DNA of 64,000 bases from Eledone cirrhosa (taxonomy: Eukaryota), in contig OZ024743.1 in NCBI GenBank assembly GCA_964016885.1, forward strand, positions 342,550,001 through 342,614,000, read 5' to 3'. The notes under the pieces were generated by a model, which saw nothing but the letters and a program-made list of their open reading frames with translations, searched no databases and was not told where the DNA came from. The translations under genes and the position numbers were made by a program. Numbering within the stretch: position 1 is the stretch's first letter; the number at the start of each line of letters is the position of its first letter. Shown here piece by piece: positions 1,000 to 58,080 of this stretch.

Positions 1000-1225
1000 G
1001 TAATGATTCCAGTTCCTCAAGGAAATAACAACACAACCAGGAGCTGGACATATCGATGTATTGACGGAGTAAAACACACTTCAACAACACGTGTACCTGT
1101 CTTTCCTACACCAATTCGGACTGCCTGAAGAGGTCACAGCCAATGATGGCTGTCACCCAAATATATATAGCAATATATCTATAATTTATAATAGACGAAG
1201 CCAAATTTTATATATTTGACTTAAT
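1000..1225 (+). mobile_element. PLE 3' end (pLTR) fragment with mutated hammerhead (1121-1172)
   Basis: ctgc-CTGAAGA-ggtcacagcc..ggctgtcacc-CAAA-tatata-TA-gca. Homologous to 32981-33190 and 47130-47300. Flanked by (TA)n. Confidence 0.7.
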
Positions 1226-1420
1226 TATTTTATATATAAATATATATATATATATATATATACACACACATACGTATATATATATGATTTATTTTATGTG
1301 CGTGTGTGTGTGTGGGGGGGGGGGGGTGTTACGTTTCTTACACAATACAGTATTGAGTAAAATGTATGTTTGATAACAGACTTAGCTTGTAATATAGACA
1401 TACCTCTCTAAATTCTAAAT

Positions 1421-1607
1421 TAATAATTGTTTCTACTTTAGGCACAAGGCCAGCAATTACCCAGTGCATTACTGGTACTTTATTTTATCTACCCCGTAAG
1501 GATGAAAGGCAAAGTCAACCTCGGCGGGATTTGAACTCAGATCGTAAAGGGACGTAACTATGCTGGAAAGCATGGCGTCCGACCCTCTACCAATACTGCC
1601 AATCCAC
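1421..1607 (-). mobile_element. tRNA-derived SINE
   Basis: Reverse complement of the consensus seen at 19622-19809. TSD aaattaataat. The empty site is visible in the other palindrome arm (~2835). Confidence 0.9.
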
Positions 1608-2034
1608 AAATTAATAATGTAGTTAAGCGAGGTTTCCTTTTTTTACTTTTCAATATAGTGTAAAGCTCTTGTAAGATAAACATATATCGTAAGATAAAGA
1701 AAATCTTCATTTGCTATTTCCATCAATTATATATAAATATGAATAAATAAATATATATGTTAAAGTTGGGGGCCATGTATATTTATATATATATATATAT
1801 ATATATATATATATATATATATATATATAAATATATATATATATATATATATATATATATATATATATATATATATAGAGAGAGAGAGAGAGAGAGAGAG
1901 AGAGAGGGGGAGAGAGAGAGAGACATACAGAGAGAGAGAGGTAGAACACTGGAAGGTAATATCCGTAGTGGTAGAACACTCAGTCCATGGGACGAGTTAG
2001 GTAGAAGTGGTAACACAACAGTTAGTTCACCATA

Positions 2035-2073
2035 CCGAGAAAAATTGTTTCACCTTAGCGGATCCTCAGCTCG
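2035..2073 (-). ncRNA. Type I hammerhead ribozyme
   Basis: cgag-CTGAGGA-t-cc gctaa gg-t-GAAA-caattt-TT-ctcg. Same family as 46997-47036. Confidence 0.65.
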
Positions 2074-3067
2074 TAATTCAAATAAAAAAGAAAATTTCGC
2101 TCTACATGGCTGAATACAATAAATGTAATCTGAGTAATAATAACATTCGATTTGTTTGCAATTTTGCAAACAAGCCTCAATTTTATAGCCATGTCAGTAG
2201 AATGAACACTTCATTCTTGCTCTTGTGTTGGCATGCGAACTGAATTTGAATTTGGCAAAGCCCGCCATTTATCGCTCGTATACAGGAAACTGACTGGCCA
2301 GTCTGCTGATATGCAAATCTGGCTGATCAGTGAATCCGCTAATATGCAGATCTGACTGATCAGCCAGTCTGCTAATATACAAGTTAGGCCGATCAGTCAC
2401 TGTGTATTTTTTAAAATAGCATATATTTTCACTAACTCTGACAGTTTGGCAGATGAACAGTGAGCTGTACCGTTGAAGGGTGATACCCAGAAACATTAGT
2501 GTCTGCAGTTCTGTTCGTATGCCAACACAAGAGCAAGAATGAAGTGTTCATTTTACTGACATGGCTATAAAATTGAGGCGTAGTTGCAAAATTACAAACG
2601 AACCGAAGGTTATTATTAATATTCGAAAACTCAGATTACATTTATTGTATTCAGCCATGTGGAGCGAAATTTTCTTTTATATATATATACATATACATGG
2701 TGCCCAACTTTAACATATATATTTATTTATTCATATTTATATATAATGGATGGAAATGAAGATTTTCTTTATCTTACAAGAGCTTCACACTAGATTGAAA
2801 AGTTAAAAAAAAGGAAACCTCGCTCAACTACATTATTAATTTAGAGAGGTATGTCTATATTACGAGCTAAGCTTGTTATTTATTATGTATGTGCTCCGAA
2901 TATCTAAATTAATATAACTCGTTGGATTTGTTTAATTCCTAATGCTGTGTGATTACACATACTAGCAGAAGAACCGCCCTCGATCGGTTTTCTGCTTGTA
3001 TATGTAGTGTGCATATTGGTATTATACGCAAATTTATATATGTAAATTGAAAAGTAATTTGACAATA

Positions 3068-3710
3068 TCTTCTTCTTCGCCCATTTATTTTCGAGAGGGT
3101 CGTCGGGGCAGAGTCCTTCTCAAACACTCCTTCCAGCGAGTCTGTCAGAAGCAAACAGCTCATGGATGTTATCCAACTATCTTGCTCAGGGTCTACCTCC
3201 GGGTCTCTTGATGGTTGGTTTTGCCTGTAAAATGTGTCCAGCGATTCTTTACTGAGACATTCTAACCACATGCTCATAATATCGGAGCTGTGATCTCTCA
3301 ATTCGGAGAAGTAGCGGCTCTACCAGGAGTGACTCTCTGGTCTCTGAGTTATGCACTTTATCAAGTAACGTTAGTCCAAAGACCCTTCGGAGGAATCCCA
3401 TTTCTGCCGCTTTTATTTGCAATTGTATTCTTTTAGTCATTACTCAAGATTCACGATCTTCATTAAGAGTTGGAAGGAATACCAGGAAGACAGCGAGTTT
3501 GGCTTTTACACATACCCCCTTTCTTCTGATTGTTGAATACTGAGGCTGGCGCATTAGTGCATCAGCTTTTGCAATTCTTGCACTTAATTCAGCCTCCTGC
3601 ATTCCATCACTCATGAACACGGCTCCAAGATACTTGAATTTCTCTAACTACTTCAGTAGAACTCCATTCACATGTATATAAATTTGAGGGATTTCTGCCA
3701 ACCGTCCATC
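3068..3710 (-). mobile_element. RTE-clade LINE 3' fragment
   Basis: IKAAEMGFLRRVFGLTLLDKVHNSETRESL..IERSQLRYYEHVVRM is a typical RTE ORF C-terminus. (AAG)n tail near 3068. Confidence 0.85.
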
Positions 3711-55695: not shown

Positions 55696-55959
55696 ATATA
55701 TATATATATATATATATATATATATATATATATATATATATATATATATAGAGAGAGAGAGAGAGAGAGAGAGAGAGAGAGAGAGAGAGAGAGAGAGAGA
55801 GAGAGAGGAGAGAGAGAGAGAGAGAGAGAGAGAGAGAGAGAGCGAGAGAGAGGTAGATATAGATATAGATATAGATATAGATATAGATATAGATATAAAT
55901 CTGTATATATATAATTATATATTCGTGTACAGATATTTTTGCATACACAATAACAAAAG

Positions 55960-56209
55960 ATAAACAAACGTATTTATTTCACGAGGCTCGACAGCACCAA
56001 AAATAACAACGAAAAAGAGAGGGAATGCAATTACATGCTTTCGAAAAATCTTGATGGAAAATTATTTGCTAATTCACCCAAGGCGACTTCACTTTTTATT
56101 AGAACTTCTGCATCAATTGGTGAACATACGACGAAACTGTTTCAGAAAGGAGAAATAAACAAGCCAATCTAGGTTTAGAATCCCGAGCAACGCCGGGCCA
56201 TTCTGCTAG
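55960..56209 (+). mobile_element. Helitron 3' terminus
   Basis: GC hairpin cccgagcaacgccggg about 8 nt before CTAG followed by T. The 5' extent is a guess. Confidence 0.7.
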
Positions 56210-56269
56210 TATATATATATATATAATATATATATATATATATATATATATATATATATATATATGGAA

Positions 56270-56697
56270 AAGAATGAAATGAAATTTCATTTCTCACTCT
56301 TAGTACGGCTGATACTTAAATATCGGTATGTATAGGTACATACATATATGTATACGGACGTACAGTAGTATGTATATATATACATACATGCACACATATA
56401 TATATGTACGTATGGGTTTTACCGAGCATTTATTATAATGTTCGGTTTGTTTGTAAATAAACAGCCCGAATTAAGCCGTACATTGTTCAGCAACCATCGT
56501 TGCCATTTTGTTCAACACTGACAAAGGAACGATGAACTAGTTTCAAGCTTATTAGCTATCGTCAGCTTCGTATACCTTCCTGTCAGATGATTGAACGTTT
56601 GAAAGTATATACTTTCCTTATGAATATTAACGGCTGAGCAGCCTAATTTTCATATCGAGTGAGTTAGTCGGCCGGGCGCACCTAAAACGATAAATGG
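56270..56697 (-). mobile_element. Inverted copy of the HHR element at 54296-54710
   Basis: Reverse-complement identity. HHR at about 56529-56571. Confidence 0.85.
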
Positions 56698-57864
56698 CAC
56701 AAGGTCAGCAATTATCCCAGTGCATTACTGATGCTCTGGGATAATTACTGGCCTTTAAATAATATATCTGCATGACATATTGGGTCTTTTAAAGTTGATT
56801 ACGTTTAATTTAACACGAAATTGACATTTATGTCTTAAATGTGTTACACGGCCTCTTCCTTGAAATATTCTTAGGTGAAGACGAAAGATTTCCATTTACA
56901 TTAACTAATAATCATCACTTTCATTATCAATATACTATAGGTTATCTGAAGTTAATAGAAATCTCTTAGTTCATGCATACGAAAATCAGAACGTACATCA
57001 TATATGTTCTGGTTAAAATGAAATATGTGCGTGCGTGCGTGCTCGCGAATGTGTGTGTGTGCGGCCATGCTAGGGCACTGTATTTAAAGATTTTTGTTTC
57101 GATAATATCAACCCAAGTATATTTATTGTATATATTTTACCGATTTCGTAAATATGATGAAAGAAACGTTTCTCTGCCATCAATGGAAATAATTCATTAT
57201 TCAAACATAAATATCTTGAGATATTTCTGGTCGACCTATTTGGTGTCTCAAATATATGTATATGTCTCTCTCTCTCTCTCTCTCTCTCGATCGATCGATC
57301 GATATATATATATATATATATATATATATATATAGTAATAATAATTACGAAGTCCAAAATCCGAAGAGGGCTCGATAAGGATTGTATATGCAATAAAAGT
57401 ATATATAAGCCCGTAGAGCATACGCTATTTCAGAAAATCCCGTAATAGGGTGAAAGCAGAAATTCTTCACTTAAACTATAATCAGTACTAATTATATATA
57501 TATATATATATATATATTGAAGACAGATGGATTAGGGGTTAAAGTATTTAGCTCATGTTCGTAAGTTTGCTTATTCGATTCCTGGACCGTCGGTGCACTG
57601 TGTTCCTGAGCAAGTCACGTTATTTCACGTTGCTCCACTCCACTCAACTGGTAAAAATGAACTGTACATATAATTCAACCTGTCACACTGAATCTCCCTG
57701 AGAACTACGTTAAGGACCAAGTAGAGGGCCAGCACACATGCGCGCACACACACACGACGCACACACACACACACACACACACACACACACACACACACAC
57801 ACACACACACACACACACACACACACACACACACACACACACACACATATATATATATATATAT

Positions 57865-58080
57865 GTAAAAGGTAAACAGAAATAACAACGCAATCGTTAC
57901 AGTATATGGAAGGAATATATTAGGTTAACGCTTGAAATAGCAGGAAGAGGGTCTTAACGTTTCGGACGCTAGTCCATAATCAGACGAAAGAGTGAGAAAT
58001 AAGATAGATTGAAAGGACGGGCGGGGTGGAGTAGGAAAAATGTCTTTAGATAAAAATAACAGGTCATTCGTTTTGACATC
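57865..58080 (-). mobile_element. HHR-family 3' end (core decayed to CTGATTA)
   Basis: gt-CTGATTA-t-gga ctagcg tcc-GAAA-cgt-TA-agac. Confidence 0.6.

Follow-up and report, generated by a model that had tools for sequence, protein, structure and literature searches.

A 64,000-nt stretch of the Eledone cirrhosa genome (GenBank assembly GCA_964016885.1, contig OZ024743.1, positions 342,550,001 to 342,614,000 of the forward strand; here the window) carries, between TA tracts, short islands that resemble hammerhead ribozymes. This raises the question of what the motifs are, to which elements they belong, and how the islands arose. We identify them as minimal type I hammerheads, mostly with a palindromic stem III, of the pseudo-long terminal repeats (pLTRs) of Penelope-like elements (PLEs) and of tandem retrozymes, as a reading from the letters alone (the sequence-only reading) had suggested: six families are linked to open reading frames (ORFs) of PLEs, and up to four form tandem units. 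We hold it quite likely that the hammerheads are pLTRs of endonuclease-containing (EN+) PLEs and short tandem retrozymes, with the islands being truncated insertions, the mirror-image ones made of two cDNAs copied from uncleaved RNA.

Hammerhead motifs in the window

Both strands were scanned with a descriptor that demands stems I to III and a perfect core (CUGANGA, GAAA and UH) and in its final form tolerates a mismatch at 10.1/11.1, a long stem II and an extra nucleotide at 9/10.1. Thirteen perfect-core type I hammerheads with open stem I were found, compared to 0 in each of 20 local dinucleotide shuffles, a hit rate far above the shuffled control. A narrower descriptor allowing the 10.1/11.1 mismatch matched 10 sites, against a mean of 0.075 in 40 global shuffles and 0 in 40 local ones. 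All nine examples named in the sequence-only reading are type I hammerheads where it had placed them, and all are among the 13. An initial descriptor with strict stem II pairing gave 3 sites only; it overlooked bulged forms as well as U10.1-U11.1 and was given up. When two core mismatches were tolerated, the gain was mostly noise below score 16. The intact motifs are the following.

17669-17739, minus strand: intact type I hammerhead in a Hydra-type PLE pLTR, family E; stem III palindromic and 8 nt long, cleavage predicted at 17677
22533-22850: family E fold-back pair; intact hammerhead 22563-22633 (minus), decayed 22750-22820 (plus), the plus arm running on into the tail
26137-26191, plus strand: intact hammerhead, family I; 12-nt stem III fully palindromic, parent element not found
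26811-26853, minus strand: intact hammerhead, family J; descriptor match
33095-33149, plus strand: intact hammerhead, family A (young Hydra-clade PLE), within a solo pLTR at 32980-33200
46994-47039, plus strand: intact-core hammerhead, family D (U10.1-U11.1), in a fold-back insertion; sisters have a Hydra-type endonuclease ~175 nt upstream
48521-49126: family C retrozyme, 310-bp unit, head-to-head pair; intact hammerheads 48681-48723 (minus) and 48962-49004 (plus)
49248-49412: family F fold-back pair; intact hammerhead 49342-49394 (plus), decayed 49266-49311 (minus)
52679-52763, plus strand: intact hammerhead, family G; ~260-bp element with near-fixed 5' end and long stem II, parent not found
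54413-54455, plus strand: intact hammerhead, family B retrozyme; ~430-bp permuted unit 54296-54702
54943-55064, minus strand: intact hammerhead, family H; stem II domain of 94 nt, partial tandem 54776-55692 with period 694
56529-56571, minus strand: intact-core hammerhead, family B; descriptor match

Damaged copies extend this list. Fourteen sites with core or stem changes were aligned by BLAST to intact hammerheads elsewhere in the genome, four more belong to families K and M, in each of which the majority sequence is an intact hammerhead, and two family N sites have core variants. The window total is 33 verified sites in 16 families, with two tentative sites in two more families. About 20 of the 33 copies are variant or decaying. 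Sister loci are intact in 16 of 19 cases for family E, and 4/18 and 6/19 pass the descriptor for families K and M. The earlier figure of about 30 ribozymes therefore holds only with damaged copies counted, just 13 being intact; the spacing claimed, roughly one per 2 kb, agrees with the one per 1.8-1.9 kb found on the same inclusive basis. More than 12 families are indeed present, and "unrelated", the word used for them, means merely not alignable as DNA, since four linked families share related Hydra-type endonucleases. A candidate at ~21424 was dropped as ordinary 3' untranslated region (UTR) of the family L parent, and those at 57361, 44602, 30305, 29807, 34946 and 50581 for want of an intact sister or a fold.

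Rfam is blind to these copies: at gathering score it reported a 5S rRNA alone and no hammerhead in the whole window, and at E<=10 no hammerhead in two window stretches. The miss is a limit of the library rather than a defining trait of the hammerheads.

Parent elements and tandem retrozymes

Six families are 3' pLTRs of PLEs, with A, D, E and N of Hydra type and J and L Neptune/Nematis-like. Four PLE bodies lie in the window, and for three of them (E, J and N) the hammerhead follows downstream in sense. These bodies, the family N hammerheads and a further endonuclease piece are as follows, RT denoting reverse transcriptase and SINE short interspersed element.

17640-19077, minus strand: 5'-truncated Hydra-type PLE, family E; GIY-YIG piece 18688-19077, ~950-nt UTR, hammerhead, TA tract
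19229-21560, plus strand: Neptune-like PLE body; broken RT, GIY-YIG, SINE inside at ~19620-19815; pLTR missing in this copy, family L in sisters
26663-28540, minus strand: family J PLE, Neptune/Nematis-like; RT and GIY-YIG frames at 27055-28118 are broken and stop 205 nt upstream of the hammerhead; inverted arm at 28409-28540
38156-39814, minus strand: 5'-truncated Hydra-type PLE, family N; GIY-YIG 39365-39814, UTR, hammerhead, tail, TA tract
28969-29064, plus strand: family N hammerhead; U3-A8 core variant, one stem I mismatch
38248-38343, minus strand: family N hammerhead; core with a C3.A8 mismatch, as in most of its young subfamily
23050-23217, plus strand: C-terminal piece of another Hydra-type GIY-YIG endonuclease

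The linkage recurs at other loci. An endonuclease lies upstream in sense in 8/19 family E sister loci, and a Hydra-type endonuclease precedes the hammerhead in sense by ~1.0-1.1 kb at 6 of 30 family A loci and by 175-293 nt in 4/10 copies of family D. In family J the endonuclease is 203-214 nt upstream in 6 of 15 copies, and 18/19 sisters of the PLE at 19229-21560 continue into the family L segment. Family A is young, all 40 of 40 scored candidates being 100% identical to its 221-bp pLTR; in 7 of 20 loci picked by RT, the pLTR with its 100-nt tail stands directly upstream of an ORF with RWK, DKT and CxCx5C, a partial tandem. RWK and DKT are marks of Hydra-clade RTs, and DKT is also present in one family E locus; the D and N copies at hand are incomplete and show neither. 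The endonucleases of families A, E and N have the CxCx5C linker, CxxC and CxH, and no CCHH, while that of family D, of which the C-terminal part alone was seen, matches the Hydra type by profile. In families J and L a CX4CxxC linker precedes GIY-YIG, as in Neptune and Nematis. Pfam recognized one of the four PLE endonuclease pieces, with a score below cut-off.

Up to four families (C, B, H and K) are tandem non-coding units with one hammerhead each. The family C unit is 310 bp long and forms arrays of up to 16 units, with 67 of 79 copies at period 310; periods are 425-475 bp in family B, ~690 bp in H and ~320 bp in K. These retrozymes likely borrow the enzymes of PLEs.

A family C unit ~97% identical to that of the window occurs once in each of three sequencing runs labelled with other organisms, for which contamination, diet or related species are possible sources. 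Contigs of four runs of unknown kind were compared with family C, and in three of these runs one contig recurs after 310 nt; a circle would explain this as well as a tandem array, and it was not used as evidence.

Insertion footprints

The association with (TA)n claimed from the sequence is real. A TA tract lies within 350 nt downstream of 33 of the 35 window sites, compared to 36% of random window positions, and within 300 nt of the cleavage site in 73 of 86 intact copies outside family C in a genome sample described below (background, 26%). In every PLE family examined, the 3' ends fall at two fixed positions; the tail between them measures 85-100 nt in families A, E and N, and in family A it is the start of the element's own 5' UTR. 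Many copies are head-to-head (fold-back) pairs, to which the window adds these examples:

11181-11699: family K fold-back pair; decayed hammerheads 11312-11352 (minus) and 11528-11568 (plus)
12809-13189: family L fold-back pair; hammerheads 12923-12962 (minus) and 13036-13075 (plus), stem I damaged in both
22256-22413: family N fold-back pair, 3' half of the hammerhead only; second example at 29112-29193

Exactly one arm is tailed in 14/14 pairs of family A and 29/30 of family N (43 of 44 together), the single exception resembling two neighbouring insertions. Arm lengths were compared in 44 resolved pairs, 3 of 47 having been dropped for junction gaps of >40 nt. In 29 pairs the arms are equal, family A mostly having arms of ~223 nt and family N of ~57 nt. 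The longer arm is the tailless one in 9 pairs and the tailed one in 6, three of these 6 being segmental duplicates. In some pairs the tailless arm exceeds the tailed one by up to 1.9 kb, and in others it is shorter. As both kinds of unequal pair cannot come from one folded-back cDNA, we infer two cDNAs.

The 5' ends are not set by cleavage. Among 243 off-target copies of seven families, only 3 end within 2 nt of the cleavage site, and each family instead has one cluster of ends (for example, 51/124 copies in family N and 16/37 in F); we therefore rejected hammerhead cleavage as their source, and an earlier pass over 11 families was concordant. Counted from the cleavage site, the clusters lie at about -167 in family A, -100 in E, -45 in F, -38 in D, -72 in L and -41 in N. 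In family A, 17 of 56 copies end at -167 to -169, in a set biased by query start. The family N cluster falls within loop II, which is why most of its copies are half ribozymes. With motifs defined in their generally known form, the densest cluster is within 3 nt of an initiator-like motif in 6/7 families (chance, 9% each), and in 3/7 it is preceded at 30-32 nt by a TATA-like box (chance, 10%). TATA and initiator motifs in pLTRs have been published (PMC3846280, PMC2377424).

A YGAGTRY motif occurs ~45-65 nt before the TA junction in 3' segments of families A, D, F and G and of cluster 3 (22/51 copies in A, 12/15 in G and 9/15 in F) and is absent from C, E, H and J; it may be part of a protein-binding hairpin.

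Genome-wide density

We sampled 99 evenly spaced 10-kb blocks (989.6 kb) of the 3.0-Gb genome. A host protein encoded at one of the retrieved loci is 90% identical to its counterpart in Octopus bimaculoides and 77% to that in Argonauta, as expected of an octopus. The descriptor matched 117 hammerheads with a C3-G8 core and 14 with U3-A8, against 0 and 0 in shuffles, an intact density of ~100 per Mb. Extrapolated by stratified bootstrap, this amounts to 311,000 intact C3-G8 copies genome-wide (210,000-447,000), an estimate that fell with sample size from 420,000 in the first 59 blocks. Clustering of 128 matches (all 117 C3-G8 and the 11 higher-scoring U3-A8) gave 32 clusters, some singletons among which may be noise. 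Members of one family are not independent of each other, and 40 of the 117 matches come from a single family in 5 blocks. The four large chromosomes are denser, with 99 matches in 68 blocks versus 18 in 31 blocks for the remainder. From blocks of these chromosomes, 9.3 intact motifs would be expected in the window, and the 13 found do not differ from this (p ~0.24). The "dense swarm" proposed for the window is thus the ordinary level of this genome, and a local hotspot is ruled out.

An element library built from these families covers 6.4% of the sample but 38% of its inverted-repeat bases, and 46 of the 71 tight inverted repeats belong to it. Copies of families C and N also recur at regular ~4 kb and ~44 kb spacing (C28:43.30-43.36 Mb; C2:338.33-338.46 Mb), which suggests tandem segmental duplications.

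Ribozyme core, fold and expected activity

Covariation of the 3-8 pair is apparent in the sample, with 117 C3-G8 and 14 U3-A8 cores against 4 mismatched C3.A8 and 2 U3.G8, when the shuffles contain 0, 0, 2 and 3, respectively; G3-C8 and A3-U8 cores show no excess over shuffles in the same sample. This is selection on the fold. The U10.1-U11.1 combination, a known and tolerated mismatch (PMC3088659), is present in 46 of 128 sampled copies, so that G10.1-C11.1 is not conserved, and families J and O have an extra nucleotide at 9/10.1. Stem III is fully self-complementary in 16/18 clusters (6-10 nt, even length), of which the descriptor imposes the outer two pairs only. Families N, F and I, whose stem III can form a hairpin, keep a palindromic loop nonetheless.

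A stable monomeric stem III hairpin is predicted to be missing in 11 of the 13 intact window motifs, and predicted self-duplexes range from +1.4 to -22.7 kcal/mol. Family C has an extended stem I (fold z -3.7). Minimal PLE hammerheads of other animals are reported to have no monomer activity or to cleave weakly or as dimers (PMC4209133), dimer cleavage being published for other animals also in PMC7229834, and that of an anole PLE is reported to need protein, with no RNA-seq reads ending at the site (PMC11167929). By analogy, and because 11 of 13 motifs appear to lack the monomeric hairpin, dimer cleavage through the self-complementary stem III is the likely mode here. The statement that any transcript through the region would meet many self-cleavage sites is consequently not supported. 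The layout of frequent inverted pairs implies that a read-through transcript would carry one ribozyme together with its antisense copy.

Family N has a U3-A8 core in several, older subfamilies and the mismatched C3.A8 in a young one (such as 38248-38343) with 96-97% identity; a first look gave 2,593 family N candidates. Whether an element must be catalytic to spread is put to a natural test by this young subfamily.

Proposed insertion mechanism and its alternatives

Under our preferred reading, the GIY-YIG endonuclease would nick both strands of a TA tract, and RT would start on uncleaved RNA at two internal positions downstream of the hammerhead, each strand using one of them. Both cDNAs would stop independently of each other and then be joined head to head. 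When priming occurs behind the 5' pLTR, the enzyme would run off the 5' end of the transcript after ~55-320 nt, leaving short solo islands. The hammerhead would cleave mainly as a dimer to give the unit-length or circular RNA that tandem retrozymes need, and the ends of inserted copies would not be set by cleavage. There is precedent in vitro for an anole PLE, where both strands are reported to be cut and extended from starts at two tail-bounding sites, with insertion equally good when the hammerhead is dead (PMC11167929).

Several points weigh against this reading. For families F, G, I, M, O and V no link to an ORF or a tandem unit was found, and the H and K periods come from 1 and 3 cases. 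Among the family N pairs counted are three segmental duplicates and a copy of the window itself. The initiator motif was matched post hoc, with family L off it by 4 nt, and the 5'-end modes of A and J come from 2 and 3 off-target copies. The young N subfamily appears to have spread despite its mismatched C3.A8 core, suggesting that activity is not required in every family. Finally, transcription starts, cleavage, circles and dimers are all deduced from DNA.

Other explanations keep the same elements and change how the copies form. One is that pairs arise by self-priming (snap-back) on one template and solo pLTRs by recombination or deletion. Snap-back on an antisense transcript has been proposed for rotifer PLEs (PMC3846280), 29 of the 44 pairs are near-symmetric, and unstable TA tracts could promote deletion; we nevertheless regard this account as improbable, as a single cDNA copied back on itself cannot leave one arm tailed and the other with additional 5' sequence, and the near-fixed 5' ends shared by solo copies are unexpected from random deletion. 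It is also conceivable, if unlikely, that the palindrome of stem/loop III pairs two element RNAs as templates, which would let a PLE protein dimer prime both cut TA strands at the same time and yield the mirror-image insertions with a single tail; fold-backs would in that case be a main source of the octopus long double-stranded RNA (dsRNA) behind hyper-editing.

Two further explanations were weighed. Hammerheads could be host-level RNA terminators or processing sites that cut read-through transcripts, given ~100 intact motifs per Mb, some of which, like family C with its extended stem I, could be active in tandem arrays. The missing monomeric stem III, the dependence of published minimal PLE hammerheads on dimers or protein, the lack of anole reads ending at the site, and the variant or decaying state of most window copies make this very improbable. 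That the motifs match by chance in repeat DNA rich in AT and palindromes, and were multiplied as the repeats were copied, would fit the non-independence of family copies and the single family behind so many sample matches; against 0 shuffle hits, 32 separate clusters, 3-8 covariation, and sense orientation with fixed spacing to PLE ORFs, this is hardly credible.

Other features of the window

The remaining hammerhead sites are the following.

1120-1174, plus strand: decayed hammerhead, family A subfamily; inverted tail upstream, ~912-1003
2036-2073, minus strand: decayed hammerhead, family D
2462-2511, plus strand: decayed hammerhead, family V
9467-9501, minus strand: decayed hammerhead, family O
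9923-9966, plus strand: decayed hammerhead, family J
11799-11838, plus strand: decayed hammerhead, family F
15048-15123, minus strand: decayed hammerhead, family M
24481-24570, minus strand: tentative decayed hammerhead P; no sister found
33348-33390, minus strand: family B hammerhead, one core change
47195-47250, plus strand: family A subfamily hammerhead, one core change
48317-48391, plus strand: decayed hammerhead, family M
51441-51477, plus strand: decayed hammerhead, family O
53403-53491, minus strand: tentative decayed hammerhead Q; one sister found
57952-57987, minus strand: decayed hammerhead, family O

A solitary 5S rRNA gene or pseudogene (53871-53989, plus strand, 102.7 bits) has a SINE copy immediately after it (53990-54164). 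A SINE-like repeat of ~190 bp is abundant, with copies at 1418-1619 and in more than 10 other places in the window, often within PLE copies (e.g., 19620-19815). A broken long interspersed element at 58436-62820 (minus strand), which we take to be L1/Tx1-like, has endonuclease, RT and zf-RVT domains and two near-intact relatives just before the window. A degenerate TTAGGG-like tract lies at 44807-44906, far from the chromosome end. Fold-back repeats with no recognizable hammerhead are present at 29720-29916, 16043-16127 and 47348-47689, the last having sequence in common with family C.

Comparison with known systems and implications

The pLTR hammerheads agree with those described by Cervera and de la Pena (2014, PMC4209133) in their type I topology and palindromic stem III, in the presence of many heterogeneous families in one genome, mostly as single motifs or opposite-strand pairs, and in the extra 9/10.1 nucleotide and the U3-A8 covariant. 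They differ in the lack of G10.1-C11.1 conservation and in number, with ~310,000 intact copies here against ~9,000 in Xenopus tropicalis and ~4,000 in coelacanth there, counts obtained with different descriptors. With the Hydra clade of EN+ PLEs (Craig et al. 2021, PMC8557442), they share RWK, DKT, CxCx5C, the absence of CCHH, the hammerhead, (TA)n, the tail and the inverted 5' copy. That clade is reported to have few families outside cnidarians, generally <3 kb, with tails of 30-40 nt; E. cirrhosa has many families, its tails are 85-100 nt, and family A is both young and longer (ORF of >879 amino acids plus ~1.1 kb of UTR).

The tandem units correspond to metazoan non-LTR retrozymes (Cervera and de la Pena 2020, PMC7229834; Li et al. 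2026, 10.64898/2026.07.22.740005), which are likewise non-coding 300-700 bp tandems with one type I hammerhead each, low GC and a proposed PLE origin. A difference is that the arrays here, known from DNA alone, end in (TA)n and, as the co-resident PLEs do, carry units inverted at the 5' side. The axolotl, with a genome ~nine times larger, is reported to have 126,247 motifs by another descriptor (PMC7229834); if our estimate holds, E. cirrhosa has more hammerheads, and far more per base. The closest mechanistic parallel is Poseidon of Anolis (Frangieh et al. 2024, PMC11167929), with two start sites of RT that bound the tail and lie downstream of the 5' pLTR, an AT-rich target, and both strands cut and extended on an uncleaved RNA template, features reported there and deduced here. 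Poseidon belongs to a different PLE clade, and the sections of that report used here do not link one-tail pairs or run-off solo pLTRs to the start sites.

We found no hammerhead survey of octopus or cephalopods in the literature, although the supplements of PMC8557442, which list Hydra families and hammerheads, may include octopus entries; a 2026 O. vulgaris repeat annotation (PMC13282606) does not mention ribozymes in the parts available to us. Each component is of a known kind, namely PLE pLTR hammerheads, Hydra-clade (TA)n targeting and non-LTR retrozymes. The present analysis adds an estimate for the whole genome, counts of tailed arms and of arm lengths in the pairs, and the extent to which these elements overlap with fold-back DNA.

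The young families offer a testable genomic footprint of the poorly known process of PLE insertion, in which each strand has its own fixed priming site, two in all, templates are uncleaved and copying runs off where the transcript starts. Long dsRNA is reported to be exceptionally common, or dsRNA potential unusually high, in octopus (PMC5625713). With their share of inverted-repeat bases, the fold-back insertions may supply part of this octopus long dsRNA.

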